Shown: positions 6,125 to 53,879 of the stretch, piece after piece
Position numbering within the stretch: the stretch's first letter is position 1
How the letters are laid out: each line of letters begins with the position of its first letter
NCBI RefSeq assembly: GCF_018350175.1
Contig: NC_058368.1
Span: 682,001 to 746,000 of the forward strand
DNA length: 64,000 nt
From: Felis catus
Taxonomy: Eukaryota
Reading direction: 5' to 3'
The notes under the pieces: generated by a model
Seen by the model: only the letters and a program-made list of their open reading frames with translations
What the model was told of the DNA's origin: nothing
Database searches by the model: none
Program-made: the position numbers and the translations under genes

Positions 6125-6896
6125 ACCTTTATTCTTTTTAATTTTTCATTTCACTCTCTTCCCAGAGGTTATTAATGACAAACGGTTAAATATTTTTTCC
6201 TCATTATTGCCACATGTTTAAATGTTACTGTTTATTATATGTCTAGGTGTTTTGCTTTGTTTTTTTAATTTTCAAATGTTTAAAGACTGGCCTTTTCTTA
6301 AGCAAGGGAGTGATGTGATGAACACAGTCCATTTAGTAAAATTAATCTGATAGGAATAGAGACAGCATGTAGGAGTGGAAAAGAGTTGATTCAGGAGTCG
6401 TCTAGACAGGAAGAAATGAGCATGGATGAGAAAACCCATGGAGGGCTGTGCACAGAGAGGTAAAGGAAGAAGTGTCAAGACCTGAAAACAGGCCAGATAT
6501 AAGAACCCTTCTGGAATAGTGTCTGGGCCCATGTGACACCAAGGAGAGATCAAGATCCACACATGAAGGGACCACTATGTTGCCGCCTTAATGGAAGTTG
6601 CATTGCTTCTGTTAAGCCATTGTTTACAATATTGTAATACTAGTGACTTTTATTCTAGCCATGTGTGTATGAATTTCCTAAAGATGTAGCTACTATGTTT
6701 TATAATGTAACATGGACTCTACACCATAACTGTAGAATGCTCTAGCCCCTGAAGCCAGCATTGGGAGTTTGAGGGACATGATGCAAATTCAAGCAATTGA
6801 AAGAAAATATACATTGTAGTTTCCATTAATAATTGTTCCTGCAAATGTTGTTCCATATGGTTTCATCAAGTACATGGATTTTTTGTTCTTCTTCAG

Positions 6897-7028
6897 GTCA
6901 TTGTTTTTCAGACATATACAAATCAAAGTTCTGTGCCCATTGAGGCAAAATATATTTTTCCCTTGGATGATAAGGCAGCTGTCTGTGGTTTTGAAGCATT
7001 CATCAATGGGAAACACATAGTAGGAGAG
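6897..7028 (+). CDS. PARP4: PARP4 exon (VIT domain), 132 nt, phase 0-0
   Basis: ttcttcttcag|GTCATT...GGAGAG|gtaagg; VIVFQTYTNQSSVPIEAKYIFPLDDKAAVCGFEAFINGKHIVGE. Confidence 0.96.
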
Positions 7029-7802
7029 GTAAGGGGAGAAAATGCACTGCGATCGCTCTTTGGTTTCAAAGTAAGTTTCCCATTTACTCAAATGTTTCTC
7101 ATCTGAGTCCCCATAGCTATAAGGTTGAGTAGCAACCTTGTCATAAGACAGAAATAATCTTTGAAGAACCAAGCACTTGGGCAGTTGGCTTCCTGGGACA
7201 CATCCCTCCCTGATTAACTGGTTTCTGTTCCTGTCTGTCCAGTGTTCATCAGTCAGTGCCTTGCAAATTCTTTGCCTAGCACTTCAGAAAAGATCAATTT
7301 CAGTATCAAAAGTTTAAGAGAGGCACATAGGAAAATTGGTGAAGCCCTTATACAGTTTTGCAAACAATGACCCTCTGCGCCCTGCTGTAACAGACAGACT
7401 GAGGTGATGGCTATTGTTGTAAGAAAGGGTGTACCAAAAGAAATAACAAGTGATACATTCTTTGTTTATTCTAAGGATTAGCCCACAATTGCAATAACTG
7501 CTATTTTGTTAAATTTAAGATTTAACTTATTATTTTTGTTCAACATAAAATCCCAATCAAATATTTTTTTCACTATTGACTGTGAAATATTTTGGTCCCA
7601 ACATCATCATTTTGGCCTTTTAATATTCAAATTCTTATTAGGTAATTACATGTTAATGACCACTTTATATAGGTTTCATTTCACCTTAGATGCTTAGTTT
7701 TCTGGTTTTGCATAGGTTTTAATAAATATTGATGAAGTTTTTCTTGTTAAAGTCTGAAATCACTATTCATGTTATGACTGGCTTGAAAATAATCTTTTCC
7801 AG

Positions 7803-10585: not shown

Positions 10586-12011
10586 GTTTGCTTAACTTAA
10601 AAGACACGTATATTTGAAAAGCCTTGGCTTCAGCGTCTCTCCACGTAAGGGAAAACTAAAGTTGTCCTTGCCTTCACCCAGGACCTTGCCTGCCACCCAA
10701 GCAGGACAGACCGCTGCTTTCTGCTCCTCTGGCAACAGTGCATATCTGCCTCACTACTCTTCATACACTATTTACAAAGATAGAGGTCTAGTTTGTCGTC
10801 CCAAATATTTAAGCAAGGAAGTAACAGAAAAGGGCAAATAAAGAGTTAATGAGGAAATGCAGAGGAAATTTCGAGGCCAAGTCGGAAGCTGAGAGAAGCT
10901 GAATCAAGGGCCCAGCCTCCGTGGACGGAAGCTGCCGAGTGAGGGCTAGCTTCCCTGTTACTCTAGACCAAGATGCTAGCCCCCTCGGAGCCCGTAGGGG
11001 AATCCACAGTTCCCGTGCCCCATCTGTCCCTTGAGGGGCTCGTCACTCTTTGGAATTCAGTTCACTTGGCTGCCTTGCAACTCAGTGTTCTGGCAGTTCA
11101 AGACAAGTTACAGTTTTGTAGATTATCCGGCTTGTTGCAACAGAAGTGACATCTTGCATCTGTAGCCTACATAGAAACGGAAGTGCAGCCCCACTCTATT
11201 CCGTGGCAGTCCCTCAAATGAGCCCCAGGTTTTTATGCACTTCTTTCAAGGACAAACACTGTTTACTAATCATCTCTCCATTGTTTATCCCTTCGTTGGA
11301 ATCCATTTCTTCATTGGGTGTTCTTGCAAATGGATATTATCATTAGTATTATATGCTCCTAAACATACTGAATTTCATGGCAGTACAGTCAAGCAGAACA
11401 GAAGATACGCTTGGGGTATTAAGAGCTTCTCTGTGTAGGATCAGAAAAAATAGATCTGTTCTGTCTTTTTTCTGCCCTAGTCATTCATGAGTCTGTCTCC
11501 TTATGCAGTGATTATAATGCCCCTTTAAAAGAAAATGAAATGCCTTTTCTAAATAAAATGATGAGTAAACTGTAGGGTGAGAGAATTAAGTGAGGACCAA
11601 GTTAGCGAGAACTGCTGAAGCTCTCCGGCTCCTGACAGAATTACTGCCAGATGCTGTGGAGGTCGGAGAGGCTACAGGCCCTTCCAGAAGGGGCTGTCTG
11701 GAGGCTGGCTGTGCAGAGCCCGTGCCCAGGGCCTCTGTGCGAGGACGAGGACGGTGAGGCTCCCCAGTCAGGGTGGGGTCCTGCTTCCAGGGGGCCTCCC
11801 CTCCCTCTGCCCTTTGTAGATGTCACACCGTTCCCACCCCTGGGGACCAGCTCCAGGATTCTCCTTTAGCACTACAAAACGGTATATGCCCATTTTCTGA
11901 GGAAGACTCTGGCAGATTGTAATTTAAGTGGCTCATGTAATAGGGGGGATTAACTAGCATAGAATGCATATGCTTTTGAGTGGAAAGATGAGTAATGTGT
12001 TTCTATTTCAG

Positions 12012-12176
12012 GATGTTTTTACTGTTAGTGTTGGAAATCTACCCCCTAAGGCCAAGGTCCTGATCAAAATTACCTACATCATGGAACTCAGCATCCAAGG
12101 CACCAGGGCCGTCTTCTTCATGCCCGCCACCGTAGCACCCTGGCAACAGGACAGAGCTTTGAATGAAAACAGTCAG
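12012..12176 (+). CDS. PARP4: PARP4 exon (end of VIT), 165 nt, phase 0-0
   Basis: tctatttcag|GATGTT...AGTCAG|gttcgt; DVFTVSVGNLPPKAKVLIKITYIMELSIQGTRAVFFMPATVAPWQQDRALNENSQ. Confidence 0.96.
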
Positions 12177-12838
12177 GTTCGTATGCTTAAGAAAGATTTA
12201 AAGAAGCTTTTTTTTGGTGATTTATTCACAGGGAAGAAAAAGTATCCAAAATAATCTAATCTTCGTGGTGCAAAATCCGTTTTGCTGGCATTTCTGCATT
12301 TAGATACAAGGCACAGTTACACTCAATGGGTATCATATTTTTATTCTGTTCAGTCACTTAAAAAATTTTTGTGTCTCTACTTACATGTTCATTATGAATA
12401 ATTTAGATAAGCATAAAGAATGCCAAGAAACCAAAGAGGAAAATTTAAACAACCCTTAATTCCATTGCCAAAGATAGTAGCCCAAAGCTACTGGTTAACA
12501 CTTTGTTCCTATTTTGTATGTATTTATATAAACTGTGTTTATATGTGTATATGTATATATAGGTGTATAGGTATATGTGTGCATATACACTCATAGAGAC
12601 ATATGTATAGTTGAAAATCTCTATTAAAATGGTCATAAATTATCCCCAATATCAGTTGCATTTTAGAAGTTACTGTTTTTCCATGACCAAATGTTCTGTG
12701 TCTCGCCACTCCAACATGAGACCAGCTGTCTCATAGCTGCTGTAGGTTGTGGCCTTGGCAACACTACTTTCAGCTTTGAGGTCTCATTGTGAAACTTAAT
12801 AGATACTTAGTTATACATGTATATTTTTCTTTTAACAG

Positions 12839-13238: not shown

Positions 13239-13317
13239 CTTCTCTTTGTGTATGTCCATTGAGATGCCATATGTGATTGAATTCATTTCTAGTGATACAC
13301 ATGAACTGAGACAAAAG
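13239..13317 (+). CDS. PARP4: PARP4 exon, 79 nt, phase 2-0
   Basis: ttttttggtag|CTTCTC...CAAAAG|gttagt; (S)FSLCMSIEMPYVIEFISSDTHELRQK. Confidence 0.95.
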
Positions 13318-13359: not shown

Positions 13360-15590
13360 GCATAGTTTTATTTTATCAAGGCAATACACACACATGGCTT
13401 AAAAAGTTACGTAATCATAATGCTAACAACGGCTTCTACAACAAGCTGCAGTCGGTTCTACCCTGCCGCTTCCAGACCCGCCTCCAGAGGCAGTGAACCA
13501 CTTTAAATACTTTACCTCCTTTCTGCTGGCCTCCAAAGTTGTGAATGATACATTTTTTTACTGCTTGTTCTTGACTCATCTATTTCAAAAGTTTTTTTTT
13601 GGCTTCTTACTGTGGTAGATGCAAATCTGGTTATCTTGCCTCTCCGCTACCCTCAGTCGCACACAGATTAAAACTCTTCGGAATACTGTTTTTCACTGCT
13701 GAATGCTCCCAGTAATTTGGAAATGTTTTCCCCCTGAGACCCTCTTCCTTTTCCGTGTCTCCACTGCAGCCCAGCCTGGTTACTGCAGGGCAGGGGTTGT
13801 CCCAGGGCCTTTCTTTTCTGATTCTCCTTTGCAGGACTTTTGTTCCTTATCCTCGTTCTTGTGTTACTCCTTCCATTGGCAGAGCACAGCCTCCATTCAC
13901 TTCCTGAGTAGGTGGAGTGTGTGGGCAGCAGTGCCTGAAGCTGTCCTCATCCCATGTGTTAATGCTGATCATTTGTTGAGGTTTTCATCTCGGGTTGAAA
14001 ATCACCCTGTGAAAATACTGAAAACGTTATCTTCTAGCTTCTAGCGTTACTTCTGAGAACTTAAATGCTATTCTTATCCCCCATTCCTTGTATGTAATCT
14101 GTTTTGTTTTGTTTTAACCTCTACAAGAATTTCAGATCTTCTTTTTATCCCTGGTATTCTGAAATTTTATAAGAAGGTGATACTCATTCATTGTATGCAA
14201 CTCGTAGCCTTTAGTGCTGGAAATTTTTGTTATATTTTTAAAAATAAGTTGTTCCTCTCTCCTGTACCTTTTGCATTGCCTTTCAATCAGGTGTCCCCTG
14301 GATGGAGCCTCTTGTTTTCTTTCTTTTTTTCTCCTGTTGACCATTGTATTGTTTTCTTGTTCTACTTTCTGAGTGATTTTTTCAATTTTAAATTCCAACC
14401 ATTCTACTGAAATTTTTATTTTAGTTCTAATATTTTTAATTTGCAAGAGCTCTTTTCTGCTCTGTAAATATTACTCTTGGGGGGCACCTGGGTGGCTCAG
14501 TCGGTTCAGTGTCCAACTCTTGATTTTGGCTCAGGTCGTGATTCCAGGGTCATGAGATCGAATCCCACATCAGGGCTGCACTGAGCATGGAGCCTGCTTG
14601 GGATTCTCTCTCTCCCTCTGCCTCTCCCTCATGTGTTCTCTCTCTAAAATATGAATGAATGAATGAATGAATGAATGAATGTTCCTTTTTTATAGCATCT
14701 TTGTGTGTTTCATGAATGCAGTACCTTCCTTTCTTGTCTCTCTGAAAATACATTTTTTCTTCTCTTCCCTGTGTTGTGTCCTTTTTCTTTGAGCTCTCTT
14801 TTCCTTCTGGCTTTTGCTTTTTGTTCTCTATATTTTGTGTTAGAGGCTTTTCCTTAAATGCCTGGGTGACCCCTCTGTGCTCGTGTCTAACTGAGACACA
14901 CACAAAGCTAGCTAGATGCTGTGAGGTGGGGCGAGTGGATGGGAGGCCCTGCACGGGAGGCCCTGGCAACTGGCTGGCTGTTTGATGGTGAGTCTCATGG
15001 TAGTGTTTTAGCCTTTATGCAGTTATTCAGAACTCCTCTAGGGTATTCATAAAGTATGACTGGGGAGAGGGACTGAGGGGCCCACACTTAGGATGCCACC
15101 TTGCACGTCCTTCCCCAGTTTACGTCACTGCACACCTATGCTTCGTTATACCTAGGATTCCTGTAGATACTCTTTGCTTGAATTTCTCTAAGTAATGAAT
15201 CTTCAGTTTCCTTAATTGAGAGAACAGGGCTCTAGCTATCGGTGCTAGCTGCTTGGCTACTTAGAGCAGGGAGGAGGTCTGCACCAAGGCAACTGAGTGC
15301 ATAGTCTCCTCGCTAGTACTGTTGTTTTCTGCAGTACCTCCAAGGTGTGACCCTTCCTGAGTCGCTGCAGTCCTCCACCCAGATGGTAACTTCCTCCACT
15401 CTCTGTACACCTTCCACCACACCTCTGTCAGCTTTGTTGAGATCTCTCATCTGCGATCGTCTTCGTTCCTACTCTCCATGTCTTTAAGGGTTGATACCCT
15501 CTAATTGATTCCCTCTTATGGTAGGGGGTTTTAGGATTTTGGTAGAGAATGGAGATAAACACATGCATTTAGTCCATCCTGAGCAAGAAG
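13360..15590 (-). mobile_element. Ancient L1 (L1M-type) 5'/ORF1 remnants
   Basis: Minus-strand ORF 14132..14446 resembles decayed L1 ORF1 (...IKFQNTRDKKKI); T-rich plus strand; boundaries approximate. Confidence 0.5.
14479..14680 (+). mobile_element. CAN-SINE with (ATGA)n tail
   Basis: GGGGCACCTGGGTGGCTCAGTCGG head, CT-rich body, ATGAATGA tail. Confidence 0.9.
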
Positions 15591-15595
15591 CCCTC

Positions 15596-16075
15596 TGCAT
15601 CAGGTAGCTTTTGCTGTGAAACAAACAATCTCAAAACTTTATGGTTTAAAACAATAACATTTGTTATTTCTCACAGTTTTGTGAATTGGCTGGGCAGTTC
15701 TAATGGGCTGCACTGGCTTGGCTGGAACAAGATGGTCTAGAATGGTCTTATTCTAATACCTGGCTATTGGCCTGGTGTCATCTGGGGTGACGACCACGTG
15801 TCTCTCTTCATCAGGTTAGCTCAGCTTCATGCGTATGGTAGTGAGAGAGTTCTCAACAGCAACAGGAGAAGGTGAGACTCACTGCACAAACATTTTCCAA
15901 GCCTCTTGCATCACATCTGCCAATATCCCATTGACCAAAGCAAGCCACACTGGCCACCTTTGGATTCAAAGGCAGAAAAAGGCCACTTCCTGACAGGAAG
16001 AGCTGCAAAGTTGCATTGCAAAGGGGCCAGCACACAGGAAAGGAAAACCCTTGAGGCCATTTCACAGTCTATCAC
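15596..16075. mobile_element. MaLR LTR (MLT1-like)
   Basis: TG...TTTGCTGTGAAACAAAC...TTAAAACAATAACATTTGTTATTTCTCACAG...CCATTGACCAAAGCAAGCCAC...TCTATCACA. Confidence 0.7.
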
Positions 16076-16161
16076 ATTGCCTTTATTGTTTAAAGCATAT
16101 AATTCACATTTCCAAAAGTGATTCTGTTTATGAAAACGTAATTTAAGAATTAGTCATAATT

Positions 16162-19129
16162 GGGGATGCAAGCTGGTGCAGCCACTCTGGAAAACAGTAT
16201 GGAGATTCCTCAAAAAAACTAAAAATAGAACTACCCTACAACCTAGCAATTGCACTACTAGGCATTTATCCACAGGGTACAGGTGTGCTGTTTCTAAGGG
16301 ACACATGCATCCCCATGTTTATAGCAGCACTATCAACAGTAGCCAAAGTATGGAAAGAGCCCAAATGTCCATCGATGGATGAATAGATAAAGAAGATGTG
16401 GTATATATATACATTGGAGTATTACTCAGCAATCAAAAAGAATGAAATCTTGCCATTTGCAACTACATGGATGGAACTGGAGGGTATTAGGCTAAGTGAA
16501 ATTAGTCCGTCAGAGACAGACAAAAATCATATGACTTTACTCATATGAGGACTTTAAGAGACAAAACAGATGAACGTAAGGGAAGGGAAACAAAAATAAT
16601 ATAAACACAGGGAGGGGGACAAAACAGAAGAGACTCATAAATATGGAGAACAAACTGAGGGTATTGGAGGGGTTTTGGGAAGGGGGATGGGCTACATGGG
16701 TAAGGGACACTAAGGAATCTACTCCTGAAATCATTGTTGCAGTATATGCTAACCAATTTGGATGTAAATTTTAAAAAAATAAAAAAATAAAACAAGTTAA
16801 AATTAAAAAAAAAAACAATGTACAGGGATATATGGGAAAAAACCAACATATTTAAGTATTTGTTTATTTATGTGAAAGGACCCAAAGATTATTATAAGCT
16901 TGAAAGATGGAGTAATTTGCATATATGATATGTAATTTTAAAATTTTTATTGGTGGATGAGAGTGGTTGAACAAAGTAAAGCCTCCATTTAGTTATTCAT
17001 TATTTCCATTCAGTATTTCATATGTGTTGCTTGCTACATAATATTTTAACATTTGTCTGAATTTGAAACAATATGGCACATTAATTTATCAGAATACTGT
17101 ATAATAAATACTAAATAATAAATTTCTTTTGTTAGATGCATATTATTCAGGATCACTTATTATGTTTATATAATTTTGATATGAAGTAGAAGACTGTATT
17201 ACAACTTGGAGTTTGTTTTAGAAGATGATAGAAAATTCTGTGGAACCATAATTTTAGAGTTGCGCTTAGGGCTAACAGCCAATGCTTAAATAGTTTAATA
17301 ATTTATTATTAGGGTTTTACTATATGTAGTTGTTATGCTTCTAGACATTTTTTCTGCAGTATTTCTGGGATAATTTGCACTAAAATTAGTTTTTTAAAAG
17401 GCCATAAGGGGCGCCTGGGTGGCGCAGTCGGTTAAGCGTCCGACTTCAGCCAGGTCACAATCTCGCGGTCCGTGAGTTCGAGCCCCGCATTGGGCTCTGG
17501 GCTGATGGCCCGGAGCCTGGAGCCTGTTTCCGATTCTGTGTCTCCCTCTCTCTCTGCCTCTCCCCCGTTCATGCTCTGTCTCTCTCTGTCCCAAAAATAA
17601 ATAAACGTTGAAAAAAAAAAGGCCATAAAATATGAGAGTTAACTATAAATCCAAGGAATCACTCAATTTTAATTTGCTTCACCAACGCCTGGTACATATC
17701 AAGAAATTCATCTTTCCTACAGAATAAAGGATGTCTGTATATATGGGACATAATTTTTTTTTTTTTTTTTTACTAAACACCTTGTCATATTAAATGAGGT
17801 AGTTTGTAGGGCATACTAAGGAGTTCAGAACACATGGGAAAGCTATTTTCTATCTCTTAATAAAGTGATTAAAAAGCATTCGTTGGACCAATGGAAGTCA
17901 CATAGTGACAACCTAAATAATTATAAATATTAATCTTCATGCAAGTCGTATCATCTTCCAAATTTAGCAAGTAAGAGAAGGCATTCCTAATAAGAGATGT
18001 AGCACACACATTTTTTTCATAGCAAAACATATGGAATCCACCAACAAAATACTAAAAGATAACATTAATTTTAAAAAATTAATCTGTCAGAATCACAATC
18101 TATGTCATATTTCTGATCCTCTACAAATTATAGTCATCATTTTGTCACTCTATTTCAGGTACAATTAATTCCTCAATCTGGTTCCATAAGCTTCAAAAAC
18201 ATCCTTGGTTCTGTTATGGACAAATTTTCTTCTATTCATACCTTCCTTCTTCTCTTTCAATTTATCTTCCACTTGACAAATTTATTATAGCATCTTGAAT
18301 CATCTACCTATAGTTCTCTATATAGTCTCAGTGCTATATGAGAAGTCAAATGACTTAATTTTCTCATTGATAAGGATTGTCATTTGGAGGCAAATTGTAT
18401 CTCCTTTCCCCCTTTTGTTAATCAAACACTTTATTCTACATGTATTCATGTTAAAGAATAACAGAAAATCTTTAAGGAAAAGAAAACCCACAATATAACA
18501 TCATAAAAGCCAATCGATTTATGTAGAAGAAATTTAGGTAACAGAAACCCAGATTCTTAGAATGGAAAAAAAGTTTTTTGCCTTAATGCAGAAAGTCCCT
18601 GTATAATATCCCAGAAACATGGTTAATTGTCTTTGCTTAAACAATTCTAACAGTGGGGAATGCACTACTTTATTAAGGAGTTCATTTTATTGATGGACAG
18701 CTTTAAAATTTGGAAGTTCCACCTGATACTTGTTCATTTTTTCATAGAGAGCATGAGCAAAGTGCACATCTAATGTAGCTGACCTCATCTAGGCTCTGAA
18801 CAGGGGCATGTTCCCTGCACTTGTGTGTTTTGTATTCCAGATGATTTGACAGCAAATAGCCGTGCAAGAATATCTACATAGATTCTTTTATTTAAAATTT
18901 TATGAAGATAATAAAATACTTTCTTGATAACTGAACTCATACTCTGAAATGAGAACCTGAAAACACAGTGAATTACAAATCTCTTTTTCCTTCTCACTAA
19001 GGATAGGATGAAACTCTTCACCCATGTGCCTGAAATAACTCCAGTCTAATCTGGATCCTGCATGATGTGCCCTCTATAGGTTTTGCCCTATTCAACATGA
19101 CCTACAAATACATTTGCTTTAAAAAAAAA
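16162..19129 (+). mobile_element. 5'-truncated carnivore L1 (16162-~16815) with ~2.3-kb 3' transduction and second poly(A)
   Basis: L1 ORF2 end and 3'UTR, A-tail at ~16773-16815, unique DNA, A-run 19121-19131; TSD AAGAATTAGTCATAATT (16145-16161) / AAGAAGTAGTCATAATT (19130-19146). Confidence 0.85.
17408..17616 (+). mobile_element. Young feline SINE (SINEC_Fc-type)
   Basis: GGGGCGCCTGGGTGGCGCAGTCGGTTAAGCGTCCGACTTCAGCC..., CpGs retained, TSD AAAAGGCCATAA (17396-17407 / 17617-17628). Confidence 0.95.
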
Positions 19130-19157
19130 AAGAAGTAGTCATAATTATAAGATTTCT

Positions 19158-21848
19158 TTTTTTTGTTTGTTTGTTTTTTAAAGTATACTTGCTTTATTGT
19201 TTTTCTTAATGATATATATCATTAAAAAATTCAAAGACTCAAAATCTGAATTCCCAACAATAATCATTACCCATATTCTCTGAATGTATTCCATCTACAT
19301 CTTCCAATATACAGAATGAGAGGGGGCAAGTTAGATGGCTAGTCAGAAAGAAATAACTTTTGAAAATGGAATGATACAATATATTTTCATATAAAGATAG
19401 AAAACTGATTAAATTTTACTTCAATGTAACTGAAATAAAAGGAACAGAAGTAAAGCTGAAGGAATTGATCAACTTGAATGCTTCTTCGTAAAAAGAAAAG
19501 CTTACCTCTAAATTTAAAATGGTCATGACCGCAGGTGCTTAGTATGTTTTTGACTGTTTCAGCTATGCAAAGTATCCACTGACTCCCTGCTAGAAAGGAA
19601 GAGGAAAGTATCACCTTACAAAACCCACACTTGCTTAATTTTTATATTTAAATAGATTCGGTACTCATCACTAGGTATTTTTGATTTACCACGTTTTTCT
19701 ATTTATTGAGCTATTCTGATTAACTTCTTATTCTGAAATCTCTTGATTTCATTGTCAGTTTGTATGTCTGTGTGTTAAAAACAAAACTTACATGAGCTAA
19801 GTTGACTAATGCCTTGCATAGTGTCGGTGTTTCTGTTGATTACAGATGAAGCAACACTTGGCTGAATATACAATTTTTGATTTATACTTCCACATTAGAA
19901 CTGTGCAGTCATTTCTCAACTATCTCCTAATGTTAATTATGTGCAAGTCATATGTATCTTCATCAAAAAGGATTAGAAATATTTTCTTTTTTTTATATGA
20001 AATTTATTGACAAATTGGTTTCCATACAACACCCAGTGCTCATCCCAAAAGGTGCCCTCCTCAATACCCATCACCCACCCTCTCCTCCCTCCCACCCCCC
20101 ATCAACCCTCAGTTTGTTCTCAGTTTTTAACAGTCTCTTATGCTTTGGCTCTCTCCCACTCTAACCTCTTTTTTTTTTTTTTCCTTCCCCTCCCCCATGG
20201 GTTCCTGTTAAGTTTCTCAGGATCCACATAAGAGTGAAACCATATGGTATCTGTCTTTCTCTGTATGGCTTATTTCACTTAGCATCACACTCTCCAGTTC
20301 CATCCACGTTGCTACAAAAGGCCATATTTCATTTTTTTCTCATTGCCACGTAGTATTCCATTGTGTATATAAACCACAATTTCTTTATCCATTCATCAGT
20401 TGATGGACATTTAGGCTCTTTCCATAATTTGGCTATTGTTGAGAGTGCTGCTATGAACATTGGGGTACAAGTGGCCCTATGCATCAGTACTCCTGTATCC
20501 CTTGGATAAATTCCTAGCAGTGCTATTGCTGGGTCATAGGGTAGGTCTATTTTTAATTTTCTGAGAAACCTCCACACTGCTTTCCAGAGCGGCTGCACCA
20601 ATTTGCATTCCCACCAACAGTGCAAGAGGGTTCCCGTTTCTCCACATCCTCTCCAGCATCTATAGTCTCCTGATTTTTTCATTTTGGCCACTCTGACTGG
20701 CGTGAGGTGATACCTGAGTGTGGTTTTGATTTGTATTTCCCTGATAAGGAGCGACGCTGAACATCTTTTCATGTGCCTGTTGGCCATCCGGATGTCTTCT
20801 TTAGAGAAGTGTCTATTCATGTTTTCTGCCCATTTCTTCACTGGGTTATTTGTTTTTCGGGTGTGGAGTTTGGTGAGCTCTTTATAGATTTTGGATACTA
20901 GCCCTTTGTCTGATATGTCATTTGCGAATATCTTTTCCCATTCCGTTGGTTGCCTTTTAGTTTTGTTGGTTGTTTCCTTTGCTGTGCAGAAGCTTTTTAT
21001 CTTCATAAGGTCCCAGTAATTCACTTTTGCTTTTAATTCCCTTGCCTTTGGGGATGTGTCGAGTAAGAGATTGCTACGGCTGAGGTCAGAGAGGTCTTTT
21101 CCTGCTTTCTCCTCTAAGGTTTTGATGGTGTCCTGTCTCACATTTAGGTCCTTTATCCATTTTGAGTTTATTTTTGTGAATGGTGTGAGAAAGTGGGCTA
21201 GTTTCAACCTTGTACATGTTGCTGTCCAGTTCTCCCAGCACCATTTGTTAAAGAGGCTGTCTTTTTTCCATTGGATGTTTTTTCCTGCTTTGTCAAAGAT
21301 GAGTTGGCCATACGTTTGTGGGTCTAGTTCTGGGGTTTCTATTCTATTCCATTGGTCTATGTGTCTGTTTTTGTGCCAATACCATGCTGTCTTGATGATG
21401 ACAGCTTTGTAGTAGAGGCTAAAGTCTGGGATTGTGATGCCTCCTGCTTTGGTCTTCTTCTTCAAAATTCCTTTGGCTATTCGGGGCCTTTTGTGGTTCC
21501 ATATGAATTTTAGGATTGCTTGTTCTAGTTTCGAGAAGAATGCTGGTGCAATTTTGATTGGGATTGCATTGAATGTGTAGATAGCTTTGGGTAGTATTGA
21601 CATTTTGACAATATTTATTTTTCCAATCCATGAGCAGGGAATGTCTTTGCATTTCTTTAAATCTTCTTCAATTTCCTTCATAAGCTTTCTATAGTTTTCA
21701 GCATACAGATCCTTTACATCTTTGGTTAGATTTATTCCTAGGTATTTTATGCTTCTTGGTGCAATTGTGAATGGGATCAGTTTCTTTATTTGTCTTTCTG
21801 TTGCTTCATTGTTAGTGTATAAGAATGCAACTGATTTCTGTACATTGA
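19158..21848 (-). mobile_element. 5'-truncated young L1 (L1_Fc-like, ~19982-21848) with ~0.8-kb 3' transduction
   Basis: ORF2 C-terminal fragment open for 450 codons (20329..21681); perfect 17-bp TSD ATAATTATAAGATTTCT (19141-19157 / 21849-21865); T-tail 19158-19179; minus-strand AATAAA at 19198-19193. Confidence 0.92.
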
Positions 21849-22222
21849 ATAATTATAAGATTTCTATTGAAGTTTCTATTTATACTATTCTAAGTTATGA
21901 TTATCTATTATACTTTCTGCTATATCCAGATAGTTCTAACTGAATACATAGACCTATAACCTTAGGATCCAGGACTTGAGACTGTCTTAAACGTATCTAA
22001 ATTTGACTGTGTACATCAACCTTAGCATTTCAGGAGGGTAACTGATATAATAATGGTCACACTTCTCAAAGCATCATAATTTTAGAATTTATGACTACAA
22101 TGTTGATTGCTAATGGTGTTATATAAATTATGCAAGGGTTTGCTACTTGAAAGGCAACTTCAAATTGATACTATGGTATTATTCCATTATTTACTTTGTT
22201 GTCATTGTTGTTTGTTTTGTAG

Positions 22223-22360
22223 AGTACAGACTGCAAAGCTGTAATTAGCACCATGGACGGTAGCTCCTTAGACAGCAATGGATTCTCCCTTCACGTCGGT
22301 TTATCTGATGCACATCTCCCAAGAATGTGGGTCGAAAAACATCCAGAAAAAGAAAGTGAG
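22223..22360 (+). CDS. PARP4: PARP4 exon, 138 nt, phase 0-0
   Basis: ttgttttgtag|AGTACA...AGTGAG|gtatgg; STDCKAVISTMDGSSLDSNGFSLHVGLSDAHLPRMWVEKHPEKESE. Confidence 0.95.
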
Positions 22361-23850
22361 GTATGGTCCTTCTTACTTAAAAATGAGGGACACTATTAAA
22401 AAAATATTTCAAATACATTAATTAAATTTGGAATTTACTGATAGTCCTGGAAAACTAGCATTGCAAAATGAACTCTCACCATTCCAAGATTTTACAACTA
22501 AAAATACTTATGGGATCTGGCATGATAAACTTCTGAGGTTTCAACCAAGTTCCTCATGTGGCATGTTTCTCTATAATGACTTTATTTTTTACCTTAAACC
22601 CCACTGAAAACAAAAAATGCCTTCAGACATTACATTGTTAGTCTGTGTATTTTTATAGTTTTTAAATATTGATACTGTAAAAACAGATACAAAATTATTT
22701 ATGGCCATAAGACCATTTGTGTCCCTATGACAAAGAATCTCTTCTTATTAGAATAAAAAATCGAGAATGACATCAGCCAGATGGCCCAACAAGGTGTCCT
22801 TCACATGTATCCCCCCCGCCAACAACAATTTGGCATCTATCCATGGACAAAGTGCCATTTGGGAACTTTGGGATCTAGTTAGGGGATTTGGAAATGCCAA
22901 TACAGCTCAAAAGTGAGGAGAACTGTTTTGAAAAGGCAGGCTTGCACCCAGGAGGCTGACTTGCTGACCATGGTCCTGGCTGCAGGCACCATCTGTGCCC
23001 CCAGATATCCTGAAAGTACCCTATACTTGGCTCCAGCCTCCTCACAGTCACAATCTTCAAGCAAGCCTGTGAGTCCAGGGACACTTCCATCTACAACCTT
23101 GAAGATTCTGAAAAGGCTGTCAGAAGATTCTGAAAATTCTCAGCTCTAACCCCCTCCTAGCTGCAGTCCACAAGCAGTCCTGTTGGCATAGGACCGATAC
23201 TCATGTCTGCACCTCAGGAGATCCAGAAAGGGCCTTATACTCTGCTTCAGCCCTCCAGCTATGGAGGGTCGGTCCACCCAGAGACCCCATGGAACATATC
23301 TATCTTCACCTTCAGAGCCAAGTCTGCAGATCCCAGTCATGGCTGTGGAACCTGAAACAGTTGTGGTGCTTGGTTCCAGCCCCTCTGAACTGTAGTCCAG
23401 GGCCAATCTTGTCCACTAGAGACTCATCCAGCAACTAGGCAGGAGTATTTCCAGGGACCTAGTGGAAGCTACACCCATCCATGTACCTGATGGTACATGG
23501 TCTAATACCATGTACCATAGTAGGTCTGATAGGTCTGATGACTGAGAACCTATGGACTCTGAAGTGGATTCTCATCCCAGGTGACTCTACTGAACAGGTT
23601 CTGAGGCAGACCCACCCACCCAGGGACCAGACGTGCTCAACCCTCTGGTAACAAGAATATCAGCTGCAGACCACACCATAGACTTAGGAACAGCCTCAAA
23701 ATTGACTCCAATTCTGCACAATTGTGATTCCAGAGGTAAACCCACCAACCAGGGAACCAACAGGAAAAGGTCTTTACCTGCCAAACTAGTGCAAGGTTAT
23801 GCACAGATACCAGTGCAAGGTTATGTAGATCATGAAGAATCAGGCAAACA

Positions 23851-24070: not shown

Positions 24071-25255
24071 AAGAATTAGGCAAACATGACACTGCCAAAG
24101 GAAACTAACAAAGCTCCTGTAATTGACCCCAAAGAAATGTAGATCTATGATTTGCTGACAACAAACTCAAAATAATCACCTTAAGAAAACTCCATACAGT
24201 ACAAGGGAAGACAGATAAACAACTAAACGAAATCAGGGAAACAACATGTGAACAAAATGAGAAGTTTAATAGAAATAGAAACCATAAAAAAGAACCAAAC
24301 AGAAAGTCTGGAGCTTAAGAATATAATGACAGGAGGATCCTGGGAAGATGGCGGCTTAGGAGGACACTGGGCTCACCGCACGTCCTGCTGATCACTTAGA
24401 TTCCACCTACACCTGCCTAAATAACCCAGAAAACCGCCAGAAGACTAGCAAAATGGAGTCTCCGGAGCCAAGCTCAGACGAGAGGCCTACGGAAGAGGGT
24501 AGGAAGGGCAGAGAGGCGGTGCACGCTCCACGGACTGGCAGGAGGGAGCCAGGGCAGAGGGGCGGCAGCCAGCCAAGCAGAGCCCCCGAGTCTGGCTTGC
24601 AAAAGGGAAGGGGCCAGACGGAGTGTGTTCCGACAGCAAGTGGGACTTGACATCTGGAAGGTTATAAGCTAACAGCTCTGCTCGGAGAACGGGAGGTCTG
24701 GAGGACAACGGGAGGGAGAGTTGTTGAGCCCTGGACGACAGAGCTCAGCTTGGCGGGGAACAAAGGCGCTTGCCAGCGCCATGTCCCTCGCCCATCCCCC
24801 AGCCAAAATCCCAAAGGGAACCAGTTCCTGCCAGGGAACTTGCTTGCACCACGCAAACACCCAACGCTGTGCTTCTGCTGCGGATCCATCCCTCCCGTGG
24901 GTCTGACTCCCTCCTGGTGCCGCAGGGCACCTCCCGAAGCGGATCTCCGAAGGAAAAGCGAGCTGAGCCTGCCCCTCCCACCCCTGTGCACCTTCCCGAT
25001 CCAGCTAATACGCCAGATGCCCAGCACCACAAGCCTGGCAGTGTGCAAGTAGCCCAGACGGGCCACACCACCCCACAGTGAATCCCACCCCTAGGAGAGG
25101 GGAAGAGAAGGCACACACCAGTCTGACTGTGGCCCCAGCGGTGGGCTGGGGGCAGACATCAGGTCTGACTGTGGCCCCGCCCACCAATGCAAGTTATTCA
25201 AGACAGTACAGAGGAAGTGCCCCGCAGTCCCGCACCACTTCAGGCACTATCCAAA

Positions 25256-26149
25256 ATGATGAAACGGAAGAATTCCCCTCAGAAAAACGTCCAGGAAATA
25301 ACAACAGCTAACGAACTGATCAAAAACGATTTAAACAATATAACAGAAAGTGAATTTAGAATAATAGTCATAAAATTAATCGCTGGGCTTAAAAACAGTA
25401 TAAAGGACAGCAGAGAATCTCTTGCTATAGAGATCAAAGGACTAAAGAACAGCCAGGAGGAGCTAAAAGATGCTATCAATGAGCTGCAAAATAAAATGGA
25501 GACAACTACGGCTCGGATTGAAGAGGCAGAGGAGAGAATAGGTGAACTAGAAGATAAAATTATGGAAAAAGAAGAAGCTGAGAAAAAGAGAGATAAAAAA
25601 AATCCAGGAGTATGAGGGGAAAATTAGAGAACTAAGTGATGCACTAAAGAGAAATAATTTGCGCATAATTGGTCTTCCAGAGGAGGAAGAGAGAGGGAAA
25701 GGTGCTGAAGGTGTACTTGAAGAAATAATAGCTGAGAACTTCCCGCATCTGGGTAAGGAAAAAGGCATTGAAATCCAAGAGGCACAGAGAACTCCCTTCA
25801 GACATAACTTGAATCGATCTTTTGCACGACGTACCATAGTGAAACTGGCAAAATACAAGGATAAAGAGAAAATTCTGAAAGCAGCTAGATAAACATGCTG
25901 TAACATATAAAGGGAGACCTATAAGACTTGTGACCCATCTCTCTACTGAAACTTGGCAGGCCAGAAAGGAATGGCAGGAAATCTTCAATGTGATGAACAA
26001 AAAAAAATATGCAGCCGAGAATCCTTTATCCAGCAAGTCTGTCATTTAGAATATAAGGAGAGATAAAGGTCTTCCCAAACAAACAAAAACTGAAGGAATT
26101 TGTCACCACTAAATCAGCCCTACAAGAGATCCTAAGGGGGATCCTGTGA
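25256..26149 (+). pseudogene. L1 ORF1p, disrupted
   Basis: MMKRKNSPQKNVQE... coiled coil; frameshift in the A-run near 25595; RIIGLPEEEE...KEKILKAAR followed by a premature stop at 25892. Confidence 0.88.
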
Positions 26150-26199
26150 GACAAAGTACCAGAGACATTGCTACAAGCATGAAACCTACGGACATCACA

Positions 26200-29100
26200 A
26201 TGACTCTAAACCCATATCTTTCTATAATAACACTGAATGTAAATGGACTAAATGTGCCAACCAAAAGACATAGGGTATCAGAATAGATAAAAAAAACAAG
26301 ACCCATCTATTTTCTGTCTACAAGAGACTCATTTTAGACCTGAGGACACCTTCAGATTGAGAGTGAGGGGATGGAGAGCTATTTATCATGCTACTGGAAG
26401 TCAAAAGAAAGCTGGAGGAGCCATACTTATATCAGACAAACTAGACTTTAAATTAAAGGCTGTAACAAGAGATGAAGAAGGGCATTATATAATAATTACA
26501 GGGTCTATCCATCAGGAAGAGCTAACAATTATAAATGTCTATGCGCCGAATACAGGAGCCCCCAAATACATAAAACAATTACAAACATAAGCAACCTTAT
26601 GGATAAGAATGTGGTAATTGCAGGGGACTTTAACACTCCACTTACAGAAATGGATAGATCATCTAGACACATGGTCAATAAAGAAACAAGGTCCCTGAAT
26701 GATACATTGAATCAGATGGACTTGACAGATAGATTTAGAACTCTACATCCCAAAGCAACAGAATATACTTTCTTCTCGCGTGCACATGGAACAGTCTCCA
26801 AGATCACATACTGGGTCACAAAACAGCCCTTCATAAGTATACAAGAATTGAAATCATACCATGCATACTTTCAGACCACAATGCTATGAAGCTTGAAATC
26901 AACCACAGGAAAAAGTCTGGAAAACCTCCAAAAGCACGGAGGTTAAAGAACACCCTACTACAGAATGAATGGGTCAATCAGGCAATCAGAGAAGAAATTT
27001 AAAAATATATGGAAACAAATGAAAATGAAAATACAACAATCCATACGCTTTGGGATGCGGCAAAGGCAGTCCTGAGAGGAAAATACATTGCAATCCAGGC
27101 CTATCTCAAGAAACAAGAAAAATCCCAAATACAAAATCTAACAGCACACCTAAAGGAAATAGAAGCAGAACAGCAAAGACAGCCTAAATCCAGCAGAAGA
27201 AGAGAAATAATAAAGATCAGAGCAGAAATAAACAATATAGAATCTAAAACAACTGTAGAGCAGATCAATGAAACCAAGAGTTGGTTTTTTGAAACAATAA
27301 ACAAAATTGATAAACCTCTAGCCAGGCTTCTCAAAAAGAAAAGGGAGATGACCCAAATAGATAAAATCATGAATGAAAAGGGAATTATTACAACCAATCC
27401 CTCAGAGATACAAGCAATTATCAGGGAATATTATGAAAAATTATATGCCAACAAACTGGACAACCTGGAAGAAATGGACAAATTCCTAAACACCCACACG
27501 CTTCCAAAACTCAATCAGGAGGAAAGAGAAAGCTTGAACAGACCCATAACCAGCAAAGAAATTGAATCGGTCATCAAAAATCTTCCAACAAATAAGATTC
27601 CGGGACCAGATGGCTTCCCAGGGGAGTTCTACCAGAAGTTTAAAGCAGAGATAATACCTATCCTTCTCAAGCTATTCCAAAAAATAGAAAGGGAGGGAAA
27701 ACTTCCAGACTCATTCTATGAAGCCAGTATTACTTTGATTCCTAAACCAGACAGAGACCCAGTAAAAAAAGAGAACTACAGGCCAATATCCCTGATGAAT
27801 ATGGATGCAAAAATTCTCAACAAGATACTATCAACTCGAATTCAACAGCATATAAAAAGAATTATTCACCATGATCAAGTGGGATTCCTTCCTGGGATGC
27901 AGGGCTGGTTCAACATTCGCAAATCAATCAATGTGATACATCACATTAATAAAAGAAACGATAAGAACCATATGATCCTGTTAATGCAGAAAAGGCCTTT
28001 GACAAAATTCAGCAATCTTTCTTAATAAAACCCCTTGAGAAAGTCAGGATAGAAGGAACATACTTAAAGATCATAAAAGCCATTTATGAAAAGCCCACAG
28101 CTAACATCATCCTCAATGGGGAAAAACTGAGAGCTTTTTCCCTGAGATCAGGAACACGACAGGGATGTCCACTCTCACCGCTGTTGTTTAACATAGTGTT
28201 GGAAGTTCTAGCATCAGCAATCAGACAACAAAAGGAAATCAAAGGCATCAAAATTGGCAAAGATGAAGTTAAGATTTCACTTTTTGCAGATGACATGATA
28301 TTATACATGGAAAATCTGATAGACTCCACCAGAAGTCTGCTAGAACTGATACATGAATTTAACAAAGTTGTAGGATACAAAATCAATGTACAGAAATCAG
28401 TTGCATTCTCATACACTAATAATGAAGCAACAGAAAGACAAATAAAGAAACTGATCCCATTCACAATTGCAGCAAGAAGCATAAAATACCTAGGAATAAA
28501 TCTAACCAAAGATTTAAAAGATCTGTATGCTGAAAACTGTAGAAAGCTTATGAAGGAAATTGAAGAAGATATAAAGCAATGGAAAAACATTCCATGCTCA
28601 TGGATTGGAAGAATAAATATTGTCAAAATGCCAATACTACCCAAAGCTATCTACACATTCAATGCAATCCCAATCAAAATTGCACCAGCATTCTTCTTGA
28701 AACTAGAACAAGCAATCCTAAAATTCATATGGAACCACAAAAGGCCCCGAATAGCCAAAGGAATTTTGAAGAAGAAGACCAAAGCAGGAGGCATCACAAT
28801 CCCAGACTTTAGCCTCTACTACAAAGCTGTTGTCATCAAGACAGCATGGTATTGGCACAAAAACAGACACATAGACCACTGGAATAGAAAAGAAACCCTA
28901 GAACTAGACCCACAAAAGTATGGCCAACTCATCTTTGACAAAGCAGGAAAGAACATCCAATGGAAAAAAGACAGTCTCTTTAATAAATGGTGCTGGGAGA
29001 ACTGGACAGCAACATGTAGAAGATTGAAACTAGCCCACTTTCTCACACCATTCACAAAAATAAACTCAAAATGGATAAAGGACCTGAATGTGAGACAGGA

Positions 29101-30013
29101 AACCATCAAAACCCTAGAGGAGAAAGCAGGAAAAGACCTCTCTGACCCCAGCCGTAGCAATTTCTTACTTGACACATCCCCAAAGGCAAGGGAATTAAAA
29201 GCAAAAATGAACTACTGGGACCTTATGAAAATAAAAAGCTTCTGCACAGCAAAGGAAACAACCAACAAAACTAAAAGGCAACCAATGGAATGGGAAAAGA
29301 TATTTGCAAATGACATATCGGACAAAGGGCTAGTATCCAAAATCTATGAAGAGCTCACCAAACTCCACACCTGAAAAACAAATAACCCAGTGAAGAAGTG
29401 GGCAGAAAACATGAATAGACACTTCTCTAAAGAAGACATCCGGATGGCCAACAGGCACATGAAAAGATGCTCAGCGTCGCTCCTCATCAGGGAAATACAA
29501 ATCAAAACCACACTCAGGTATCACCTCATGCCAGTCAGAGTGGCCAAAATGAAAAAATCAGGAGACTATAGATGCTGGAGAGGATGTGGAGAAACGGGAA
29601 CCCTCTTGCACTGTTGGTGGGAATGCAAATTGGTGCAGCCACTCTGGAAAGCAGTGTGGAGGTTTCTCAGAAAATTAAAAGTAGACCTACCCTATGACCC
29701 AGCAATAGCACTGCTAGGAATTAACCCAAGGGATACAGGAGTACTGATGCATAGGGCCACTTGTACCCCAATGTTTATAGCAGCACTCTCAACAATAGCC
29801 AAATTATGGAAAGAGCCTAAGTGTCCATCAACTGATGAATGGATAAAGAAATTGTGGTTTATATACACAATGGAGTACTACATGGCAATGAGAAAGAACG
29901 AAATAGGACCCTTTGTAGCAACGTGGATGGAACTGGAGAGTGTGATGCTAAGTGAAATAAGCCATACAGAGAAAGACAGATACCATATGGTTTCACTCTT
30001 ATGTGGATCCTGA
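26200..30013 (+). pseudogene. L1 ORF2p (endonuclease/reverse transcriptase), disrupted
   Basis: Split over ORFs 26357, 26599, 27009, 28184 and 29390; contains [38 protein letters not shown]; early TAG near 26284 and several frameshifts. Confidence 0.92.
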
Positions 30014-30238
30014 GAAACTTAACAGAAACCCATGGAGGAGGGGAAGGAAAAAAAAAAAAAGAGGTTAGAGTGGGAGAGAGCCAAAGCATAAGAGACTGTT
30101 AAAAACTGAGAACAAACTGAGGGTTGATGGGGGGTGGAAGGGAGGGGAGGGTGGGTGATGGGTATTGAGGAGGGCACCTTTTGGGATGAGCACTGGGTGT
30201 TGTATGGAAGCCAATTTGACAATAAACTTCATATATTG

Positions 30239-30255
30239 AAAAAGAAAGAAAGAAT

Positions 30256-30310
<55 letters not shown>

Positions 30311-30322
30311 AAAAGAAAGAAG

Positions 30323-30372
<50 letters not shown>
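30239..30372 (+). repeat. (GAAA)n microsatellite derived from the L1 A-tail
   Basis: About 130 bp of AAAG repeats directly after the L1 AATAAA and 3' end. Confidence 0.92.
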
Positions 30373-30374
<2 letters not shown>

Positions 30375-30978
30375 TCAGTAGAAAAAAAATAAATCACAGT
30401 GACTGCTGCTTACCAAAAAAAAAAAAAAAAAAAAAAAAAAGAATACAATGACAGACTGAAAAATTCAAGACAGAGCTTCACCAACTCCCTTAATCATGCA
30501 GAAGATAGAATCAGCTAACTTGAAGACGGATCATTTGAAATTAAAGGTATAAAAAGAAAAGGAATGAAAATGAGTGAAAAAAGCCTACATGAATTATGGA
30601 ACACTATCAAGCAAAAGAATGTTTGCATCATGGGCATCCCAGGAAAGGAGAGAAAGGGGTGGAAATATTATTCAAAGAAATAATAGCTAAAATCTTCCTA
30701 AATCTTGAGGGAGAGATGAATAACCAGGTTCAGGCAGCTCAGAGGACCCCAAGCAAGATCCATTGAAAGGAGATTACTCTAAAACACATTATAATTAAAA
30801 TATTAAAAATCAAGGACAGGGAGAGACTTTTGAAAGCAGCAAGAGAAAAATGGCTCATCACATACAATGGAACTCCCATAGGGCTATCAGCAGATTTTTC
30901 TGCAGAAACCATGAGGTCAGGAGGGAGTGTGATGATATATTCAAAGTGTTGAGAGGAAAAACTGCCAACCAAGAATAC

Positions 30979-51615: not shown

Positions 51616-52278
51616 AAGAGTCACATGCTCTACACCTGAGCCAGCCAGGTGCTGCCAGTCTAATTATTTCCAAAATATCTCAAACTTGTAATTCATATAA
51701 AACTAGATTTTATTTACATGCAACTTTTTAGGAATGACTCTTTAACATTCAAATAATAGTAGTAACATAGCATCCTTAATTCCCTTTTGTTTTCCACGTT
51801 ATTCAAAGTCTAGTGTAAAAATATATTCATTTAGTTACTTTACAGCTTTTGAAATTTTTGTCAGTTTTCTCAGTTTCCTAATATTGCTGTAAAGCAGTAT
51901 AAAAGACTAGAATAATTTATTTCAAATTATCAGCTTATTTTAGGGCTAATTTACACATTATGATACTGCTATTATAAAATCTTGTACAAGACACTTCTTT
52001 GGTCCTCAGTTTCCTCTTGTATAAAATGAGAGATATTGAAATTCCAAGATGCTAAGAACAAAGAGAAACTAAGATATTTGATGTGTTTATTGTTGCTGTT
52101 CTCTCCAGATCTCAGACTCTGTATCTACAAAACAAGGACATTGTACTTAAATTATCTTGAATATCTCCTCTTTTCAATGCTCTGGGATAAGCAGCTGCTT
52201 GTCTGCTTGGAAGTCAACTACTAGGAAGGATGTTCATTTTATTCTGTGTTTTCCCTTACATTTTTCCCTTTCGGGCAG

Positions 52279-53283
52279 CCTCTTTCAGCATTCTCTACAC
52301 GGAATGAAGAGCTGCGACATCATTTGACTAACAGAAAACTTGGATCACCTAAGCTGGAAGTTTTTGAAGATTTTGAAAAGGGTTGCTTCAGCTCCCCACT
52401 ATCAGAAAAATCTTTAACACTCAATTTCGCATGTGAAGATGTGGAAATGCCATCGGATATAAGTCAGATGGATTCATTTCAGCAAACAGGAACTGAACCA
52501 TTATATAGAAGTGACCCTTTCCTAAAACAGGGTGCTTGCAGTATTTCTGCTGCCCATAGGTTAGCCTGTTTGGAAGTTGAGCCCGTAATTGGTTCTCGTT
52601 TCCACTGTCCTTCCCACTTACATCGTTCAAAGGCTTGTCTTGCTTCTCCTGCTAGTTCTGAACAGTCTGGTCCATCTGAGAATGACCAAGACCTTCAAAC
52701 TGACAGTTGTAGTGATTCTTCCCTTGAGTCATCTGCCGCTTTCAGACTGTCTCTCCTGCCTTTGAGCTCCTTTGCTTGTGTTCCTTATTCAGGTGACTCA
52801 TATAACTTTGGACAGGTTGATCTACCTGACAGTTATCAAGGTCATAAGACTGACAATTGTGCTAGCAATTCTCTTGAGTTGGACTCTCCCCCACAGCCGA
52901 ATACTTTTTTCTCTCCTCCTAGAGTTCCTTCCTCTGGTCTACCCAGAGAGTTTGACTTTCATTACCCTTCTGGTTCTCCTCTTTATTTTCAAAATTCCTC
53001 AGTTCATTCGAGCACCGCTTACAAGCCACGGATAGATCTGTTTGCTAACACAGAATTGGAGGCTTCTTCAGCAAATGTTTGTGCCATAATTTCATCATCT
53101 ACTTCAAGTAATGGGCATTTTTCTGAAACAAAAAATGTTGAAACACCAAGATTTCAGAAACGTCGTTTGGCAAAATCTGTTCTAACAGGAAGTGCCTTTA
53201 CTGCAAGCTTTCAGGCACAAAAAGATGAACAAAGCTGGATGAATTTTGTGCCTTGGACCAAACTCTTCAGTCTACAAACTGAG
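52279..53283 (+). CDS. PARP4: PARP4 large Ser/Pro-rich (probably disordered) exon, 1005 nt / 335 aa, phase 0-0
   Basis: tttttccctttcgggcag|CCTCTT...ACTGAG|gtatta; lies inside ORF 52246..53322; ends VPWTKLFSLQTE in frame with the next exon DGFWKL. Confidence 0.92.
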
Positions 53284-53879
53284 GTATTAGTCTTATTTCT
53301 CCTTAAGTCTGTGGTTAATTAGCTTCATAGTTTAGAGCAGAGCTATTCAAAGTACCTGGTCGTTTATCAGTACAATAGTGAGGTAAGTGACTTGTGGCAG
53401 AATGTAAATCAATACACTGCTTCTTCCATTGAGAAAAATTTTCCAAAAAAAAGTCAACAATAAATACAGCGTGCTTGATAATGGTATTTATCTATCTAGT
53501 TTTAACTGTTAGGCTAGAATATCATGCAAGTGAATGTTAATATTCCTCAGTTGAAAGTTAATCATCCCTGAACGGGTCATGGGGTAAGACCTTGATTTCC
53601 TAGGTTCTAGAACAGGTGAATTGCAATTATGTACATTTCCCACTTTGACGTAGAGGACGAGAGCTGTAAGTATACTCTAATTGTTTTCACATATGGTCTT
53701 AGGAATATCACTCAACATGTAAGACTGTGTTAGAGCTTATCATTCCATTTGTGAAGCTAATAAACACTAAGTGAACTTAGTTCCTGCGCTGGTACTAAGA
53801 CCCAGCCTCATATCTGTAATTATTTGTTTTAATGTAAAGTAGTTTAGTAAAGTGGAAACTCAACTTGATTTAGTGTAAG

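Follow-up and report, generated by a model that had tools for sequence, protein, structure and literature searches.

Two tail-to-tail L1 insertions with overlapping target-site duplications and putative 3' transductions in a PARP4 intron of Felis catus

We analysed a 64-kb window of the Felis catus genome (assembly GCF_018350175.1, contig NC_058368.1, positions 682,001-746,000) in which two L1 retrotransposon units, on opposite strands, stand tail to tail within an intron of the PARP4 gene. Each unit is enclosed by its own target-site duplication (TSD), and the central copies of the two duplications overlap. Both units are composite: a 5'-truncated L1 (L1a in unit 1 on the plus strand, L1b in unit 2 on the minus strand) is followed at its 3' end by an A-tract, then by a block of non-L1 DNA (T1 and T2, respectively) and finally by a second poly(A) tail. 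The non-L1 blocks have paralogs on C42 and C11, two other contigs of the window's own 2.43-Gb assembly, in which the paralog searches were made. In window coordinates the features are as follows, the TSD copies being given without strand.

13249-13317, plus: PARP4 exon upstream of the affected intron (tblastn with felid PARP4 proteins P0006 and P0008, 100% over 23 aa)
16145-16161: left copy of TSD1, AAGAATTAGTCATAATT (sequence and repeat finder, D14)
16162-16763, plus: L1a, 5'-truncated, the end of the second L1 open reading frame (ORF2) and the 3' untranslated region of an older subfamily, frame broken
16764-16815, plus: A-rich tail of L1a, read as the genomic tail of a lost source element
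16816-17407, plus: T1, part a, non-L1; paralog C42:45372761-45373376 (minus), substitutions 6.4%
17408-17616, plus: CanSINE inside T1, with many copies elsewhere at 93-98% identity
17617-19120, plus: T1, part b, non-L1; paralog C42:45371264-45372760 (minus), substitutions 5.3%
19121-19129, plus: untemplated poly(A) tail of unit 1; C42 continues here with TTTTTAAACC
19130-19146: right copy of TSD1, with G at 19135 (sequence, repeat finder and window scan)
19141-19157: left copy of TSD2, overlapping TSD1 (sequence, repeat finder, D10, and window scan)
19158-19170, minus: untemplated poly(A) tail of unit 2, T-rich on the plus strand; C11 is unrelated here
19171-19988, minus: T2, non-L1, 0.8 kb; paralog C11:168055845-168056676, substitutions 2.6%
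19989-19994, minus: brief A-tract inside the unit, at the L1b 3' terminus, taken to be the tail of the source element
19995-21848, minus: L1b, 5'-truncated, 1.85 kb, young subfamily, adjoining the right TSD2
21849-21865: right copy of TSD2, followed by ATTGAAG (sequence, repeat finder and window scan)
22229-22360, plus: the next PARP4 exon, on the downstream side of the intron (44 aa at 100% by tblastn)

The insertions are intronic because they lie between the exon pieces at 13249-13317 and 22229-22360, which match residues 722-744 and 747-790 of P0006 at 100% identity. Searched by tblastn, the two felid PARP4 proteins gave 17 exon pieces, all on the plus strand. Pieces of the VIT domain were found in plus-strand open reading frames (ORFs) at 6801-7103 and 11958-12251, the first of which matches PARP4 proteins of felids and other mammals, under the names given by the sources. 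A search of the cat's own genome with PF00644, the PARP catalytic domain, returned 15 matches, none of them near the window, and is uninformative on PARP4.

The two copies of TSD1 match at 16 of their 17 bases, the exception being T at 16150 against G at 19135, while the two copies of TSD2 match at all 17. The central overlap consists of the 6 bp ATAATT at 19141-19146, a hexamer that is present three times in all. When the whole window was scanned with up to 2 mismatches allowed, each 17-mer was found only at its two places. Base composition predicts 8e-4 chance hits per window for TSD1 when up to 1 mismatch is accepted, and for TSD2 2.9e-5 when the match must be exact or 1.3e-3 when one mismatch is accepted; with the position fixed at the junctions, allowing a match within 5 nt either way, the expectations are ~1e-7 for TSD1 and ~5e-9 for TSD2. 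Exact direct 15-mer pairs numbered 9 in the interval 15500-22500, whereas 200 first-order Markov simulations averaged 0.19 and never exceeded 5. At 17 bp each, both duplications fall inside the range of ~7-20 bp taken as characteristic of L1 insertion by target-primed reverse transcription (TPRT).

Both outer junctions resemble sites of L1 endonuclease cleavage, for which the nick consensus is approximately TTTT/AA. AATTT precedes the left copy of TSD1, so the bottom strand at 16144/16145 reads TCTT/AA, an endonuclease-like nick site for unit 1. Likewise, ATTGAAG follows the right copy of TSD2, so the top strand at 21865/21866 reads TTCT/AT, which is endonuclease-like for an insertion on the minus strand.

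The L1 part of unit 1 has ORFs of only 79-82 aa. Its closest genomic copies are ~93% identical, and L1a aligns to their 3' ends; three sister copies (L019-L021) share the same A-rich tail, beyond which their flanks are unrelated. Compared with the minus-strand L1, L1a gives an inverted match of 72-81% (repeat finder, I1-I3). At the far end of the unit, a variant polyadenylation hexamer, AATACA, lies at 19107-19112, starting 14 nt before the end of T1, and the terminal A-run (19121-19131) extends into the first bases of TSD1, so adjoining its right copy. L1b, in contrast to the broken frame of L1a, retains an open frame of 507 aa (20329-21852) corresponding to residues 733-1236 of human ORF2p (E = 1.6e-233 to 8uw3_A in a search of PDB sequences). 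Its identity is taken from that search because Pfam gave no match for the L1b or L1a ORFs (0 of 3 proteins). In minus sense, the canonical signal AATAAA occupies 19193-19198, its first base being 28 nt short of the point where the T2 homology ends. Alignment to their genomic copies shows that L1a and L1b both stop at the canonical 3' termini of their own subfamilies.

The original prediction had described two L1 units on opposite strands of a PARP4 intron, each with its own TSD and with central copies overlapping by ATAATT. All of this is borne out: both duplications lie where it had placed them, the overlap can be read directly in the sequence, the two units are supported by the sequence, the repeats, the ORF2p match and the L1 3' termini, and the VIT exons, the source-named PARP4 proteins and the exon mapping agree on the host gene.

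Leaving its SINE aside, T1 has one paralog in the assembly, at C42:45371264-45373376 on the minus strand (T1 itself and C42 being the two of two scored candidates for each half), and T2 has one at C11:168.056 Mb (again T2 itself and C11, two of two scored candidates). The inner ends of homology fall at CACT/AAAACC at C42 and at ATATT/AAGAAAA (minus sense) at C11, both endonuclease-like. At the outer ends, homology stops exactly where the window copy has its A-tail, and the paralogs continue with unrelated sequence. The paralogs have no A-tail at these points and the tails in the window are therefore untemplated; taken together with the junctions, this indicates that the blocks at C42 and C11 were the templates and reached the PARP4 intron by way of polyadenylated RNA. 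None of the 7 ORFs within or overlapping the transduced blocks matches a Pfam family, so that the blocks contain no recognisable coding sequence and give no sign of exon shuffling.

The CanSINE within T1 is a third event, later than the transduction, because it has its own perfect 12-bp TSD (AAAAGGCCATAA, at 17396-17407 and 17617-17628; repeat finder, D4) and because C42 has the SINE target once, with no SINE. The non-L1 block of unit 1 is accordingly 2.3 kb long (16816-19120) with the SINE included, of which ~2.1 kb is source flank. This bears on the amount of foreign DNA in the intron, which had been put at ~3.1 kb from two other loci. The origin in two loci is upheld, with one paralog for each block, as is ~2.9 kb of the amount, but the remaining ~0.22 kb is the later CanSINE that C42 lacks.

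Another way to view the pair is through the relative ages of its members. Either order of insertion yields an identical final sequence, so the structure by itself cannot order the two events, and we turned to divergence from the source loci. T1 differs from C42 by substitutions at 37 of 580 sites (6.4%) in one part and 79 of 1479 (5.3%) in the other, equivalent to Kimura two-parameter distances of 0.056-0.067, while T2 differs from C11 at 21 of 802 sites (2.6%; distance 0.027), and the difference between the blocks is significant (Fisher p = 0.0004-0.0025). As for the L1 parts, their closest copies in the genome, biased low in divergence as the best of many, differ by ~7% for L1a and by 1.1-1.4% for L1b. 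Because T1 is more diverged from its source than T2, and the nearest L1 copies likewise, unit 1 is the older, and by sequence divergence the minus-strand event is younger than the plus-strand event. The original prediction had suggested the same order; it is the divergence (2.6% versus 5.3-6.4%) that sustains it, whereas the perfection of TSD2 is weak evidence for order. With neutral substitution assumed to proceed at 2.2e-9 per site per year, rough dates follow of ~13-15 million years ago for the first event and ~6 million years ago for the second.

The arrangement in both units is that of an L1 3' transduction, which arises when transcription continues past the weak poly(A) signal of the L1: non-L1 DNA lies between the L1 A-tract and a second poly(A), all within the TSD, and the extra DNA maps elsewhere, where it ends at a polyadenylation site with no templated A-run. 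We then looked for the source elements by blastn, comparing 10-kb stretches around both paralogs with the region. At C42 there was no match to the window's L1s within ~9.6 kb upstream of the paralog. Within ~8.3 kb at C11 there was no adjacent L1, and the only two matches were distant and wrongly oriented (a 75-bp A-rich tail ~3.1 kb off and a 72% fragment ~7.9 kb off). An adjacent source L1 in the same orientation is therefore missing from both loci, which lowers the certainty of the assignment while leaving both units compatible with it; because neither source locus carries an L1, 3' transduction is something that we infer rather than demonstrate. What had been predicted as two 3' transductions thus retains its layout, its paralogs and its untemplated tails, but not a source L1 at C42 or C11. 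The source sites themselves, C42:45373376 and C11:168056676, resemble intact, unfilled L1 target sites, and may be the former seats of two active L1s that have been lost.

Such an absence has precedent. Among mapped transduction sources in dogs, 3 of 27 had a reference L1 no more than 50 bp upstream of them and 24 of 27 had no adjacent one, according to the available part of PMC13141329, whose authors (citing Halo et al.) attribute these parentless sources to elements that segregate in the population and are absent from the reference. The best inference for the cat units is likewise that they are "parentless" 3' transductions, probably generated by read-through from source L1s that have since been lost.

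Putting these elements together, we consider it likely that the locus arose by two independent, sequential TPRT events in one 28-bp AT-rich site of the PARP4 intron, each with read-through transduction. In the first event, L1 endonuclease would have nicked the bottom strand at TCTT/AA. The RNA would have come from a source L1 of the older subfamily, transcribed through into ~2.1 kb of flank that is now at C42:45.37 Mb and polyadenylated ~14 nt past AATACA; the insert would have been 5'-truncated to ~0.65 kb of L1 and flanked by TSD1. In the second event, the top strand would have been nicked at TTCT/AT, 28 bp from the first nick, and the RNA of a young L1, read through into ~0.8 kb of flank now at C11:168.06 Mb and polyadenylated after the AATAAA that starts 28 nt before the homology end, would have been inserted with 5' truncation to 1.85 kb of L1. 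The resulting TSD2 would have reused 6 bp of the right copy of TSD1. The CanSINE would have inserted into T1 afterwards. Both source L1s are gone from the assembly, and were presumably polymorphic 'hot' elements that were never fixed.

Several points weigh against this account. Neither paralog has a source L1, so that L1 and flank have never been seen contiguous at a source, and there are no sibling insertions sharing T1 or T2, hence nothing independent to speak for 'hot' elements. The end of T1 is preceded by the weak variant hexamer AATACA, not AATAAA, and the internal A-tract of L1b is just ~6-8 nt long. The endonuclease-like start of homology at the paralogs is partly forced, since any A's at the paralog become indistinguishable from the A-tail once aligned, leaving the preceding T as the only informative base. 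The absolute ages depend on the assumed neutral rate. Finally, the support comes from one assembly; a search with the left flank for a second haplotype or paralog gave only old repeat fragments, and two scans of metagenome contigs with 29-nt flank words gave 0 matches.

Some of these points would be accommodated if the units were chimeras formed by template switching or RNA ligation, in which reverse transcription starts on the poly(A) of a C42 or C11 transcript and is then joined to the A-tail of an L1 RNA. This would produce the same succession of L1, A-tract, unique DNA and A-tail with no L1 ever having been present at C42 or C11, consistent with the lack of an adjacent L1 at either paralog, the lack of siblings and the shortness of the internal A-tracts. 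A switch onto poly(A) would moreover favour A-rich break points like those found, and chimeras of L1 with other RNAs are documented in the accessible portion of 10.1101/2025.02.02.635956. However, the chimeras catalogued in that portion have the L1 on the 3' side and the other RNA on the 5' side, the opposite order to ours. Two rare events would also be required at one site, where transduction is a common outcome, and a T stands just before the A-run at both paralog boundaries, as it does at an endonuclease site. Nor is the lack of a parent a distinguishing feature, parentless cases being the majority in dogs (24 of 27; PMC13141329, in the part available). We regard chimera formation as unlikely.

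Alternatively, the two units might be the outcome of one complex event, produced by twin priming or by a pair of TPRT reactions proceeding at the same time from a staggered break. The nick sites are just 28 bp apart and on opposite strands, and synchronous L1 events have been reported in tumours. From the geometry, as we reconstruct it from the sequence, such an event, primed at both 3' ends of the break, should leave A-tails pointing outward and adjoining the flanks, L1 5' ends joined centrally and one 28-bp TSD, whereas the observed tails point inward, the 5' ends lie outward, and there are two different 17-bp TSDs and three copies of ATAATT. The observed arrangement calls for two sequential events. 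The T1 and T2 divergences, about twofold apart (p = 0.0004-0.0025), and the different ages of the L1 subfamilies also speak against a single event, which we therefore judge very improbable. The last reading, that the non-L1 DNA is ancestral intron, the TSD matches are fortuitous and two plain truncated L1s happen to lie ~3 kb apart, is effectively refuted. The blocks are indeed AT-rich, non-coding and intron-like, with no Pfam match in any of 7 ORFs, but it would require junction matches with chance expectations of ~1e-7 and 5e-9, it leaves the paralogs elsewhere unexplained, with homology ending exactly at an untemplated A-tail, and neither L1 part has a TSD of its own when taken alone.

How exceptional two sequential hits on one site should be considered depends on the density of retroelements. 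The window contains ~19 CanSINE copies and ~6 L1 3' ends, which corresponds to a TPRT event about every 2.6 kb and an L1 3' end about every 10.7 kb. A crude extrapolation with uniform placement suggests that each genome should have hundreds of L1-L1 pairs separated by no more than 28 bp. Some 10-20% of L1s carry transductions and, if that figure holds, both members would carry one in some tens of these pairs. The present example is thus neat, yet not unexpected. It is also conceivable, although we hold this to be unlikely, that the second hit was not due to chance, the 28-bp site being a recurrent L1 endonuclease target or the first insertion having raised its accessibility, and that T1 and T2 are the sole footprints of two extinct 'hot' felid loci; in that case T1 and T2 would be usable as dated phylogenetic markers.

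Other abutting retroelements occur in the window. At 57915-58300 (plus), two CanSINEs in the same orientation lie 3 bp apart, a retroelement beside an older one, with identities to the SINE in T1 of 78% (57915-58104) and 95% (58108-58300). An L1 3' end at 61570-61741 (plus) lies ~24 bp from a minus-strand CanSINE at 61765-61958 (90% identity), forming a tail-to-tail pair. In the next PARP4 intron there is a near full-length L1 at 24400-30400 (plus), the 3' part of which (28383-30234) is 96% identical to L1b; its Pfam matches run in the order Transposase_22 (25551-25889), Exo_endo_phos (26291-26886) and RVT_1 in two frames (27003-28022 and 27965-29371).

As to the host gene, 364 bp separate the end of unit 2 from the exon that follows, and unit 1 and the SINE are in the sense orientation to PARP4 and contain poly(A) signals. 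An effect on the processing of the PARP4 transcript is conceivable from this arrangement. Elsewhere in the window, a large PARP4 exon piece of ~281-336 aa (tblastn) lies at 52225-53319 (plus); it agrees at 100% with a protein labelled by its source as Felis catus and at 95.5% with one from Prionailurus, and may be the variable C-terminal region of PARP4. At the opposite end, positions 1-1700 are remarkable for the length of their open frames, which occur in several reading frames across both strands (minus, 564 aa; plus, 429 and 426 aa) and match no Pfam family. This points not so much to a gene as to a stretch that is poor in stops, biased in composition or repetitive.

As a result of these events, a PARP4 intron has acquired ~2.9 kb of DNA from two other chromosomes, an example of L1 moving DNA unrelated to itself. 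A repeat masker would probably call the transduced blocks unique, and 'unique' intron sequence can thus be retrotransposed. The locus also illustrates that a short AT-rich target can be struck twice, that overlapping TSDs are silent on the order of the strikes, and that old transductions have usually lost their sources. For felid phylogeny, the two units and the SINE amount to three dated presence/absence markers.

L1 3' transduction is a well-known process, reportedly described by Moran in 1999 and by Goodier and Pickeral in 2000. Our units resemble it in having an L1 3' end with an A-tract, DNA from another locus and a new untemplated poly(A) following a hexamer, and in having one 17-bp TSD around the whole unit at an endonuclease-like site; they differ from typical cases in that the source L1s are missing at both loci and T1, at ~2.1 kb, is longish. 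The process is also described in the background section of PMC13141329, and the available part of that paper offers the nearest parallel, since the parentless transductions of canids likewise have a single source locus without an adjacent L1. The canid cases given there are young and dimorphic, however, whereas the two units here lie in a felid genome and are old (2.6% and 5.3-6.4% divergence from source).

The composite of L1 and non-L1 DNA within one TSD is shared with the L1 chimeric insertions treated in 10.1101/2025.02.02.635956, but in the available portion of that source the known chimeras carry their L1 on the 3' side. Twin priming gives inverted segments within a single TSD. Both layouts are unlike what is seen here. 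In our literature search we found no description of the combination of opposite strands, overlapping TSDs and two transductions, and the phrase 'overlapping target site duplications' did not occur in the papers listed, 12 of the 40 found. The pair belongs with the nested, clustered and near-parallel retroposon insertions of the phylogenetic SINE/LINE literature, in which separate TPRT events reportedly reuse one short AT-rich target; what sets it apart is the opposite orientation of its members, the 6-bp overlap of their TSDs and the presence of a transduction in each. Thus, we conclude that the mechanism is one already known, and that the PARP4 intron provides a new and well-resolved instance of it.

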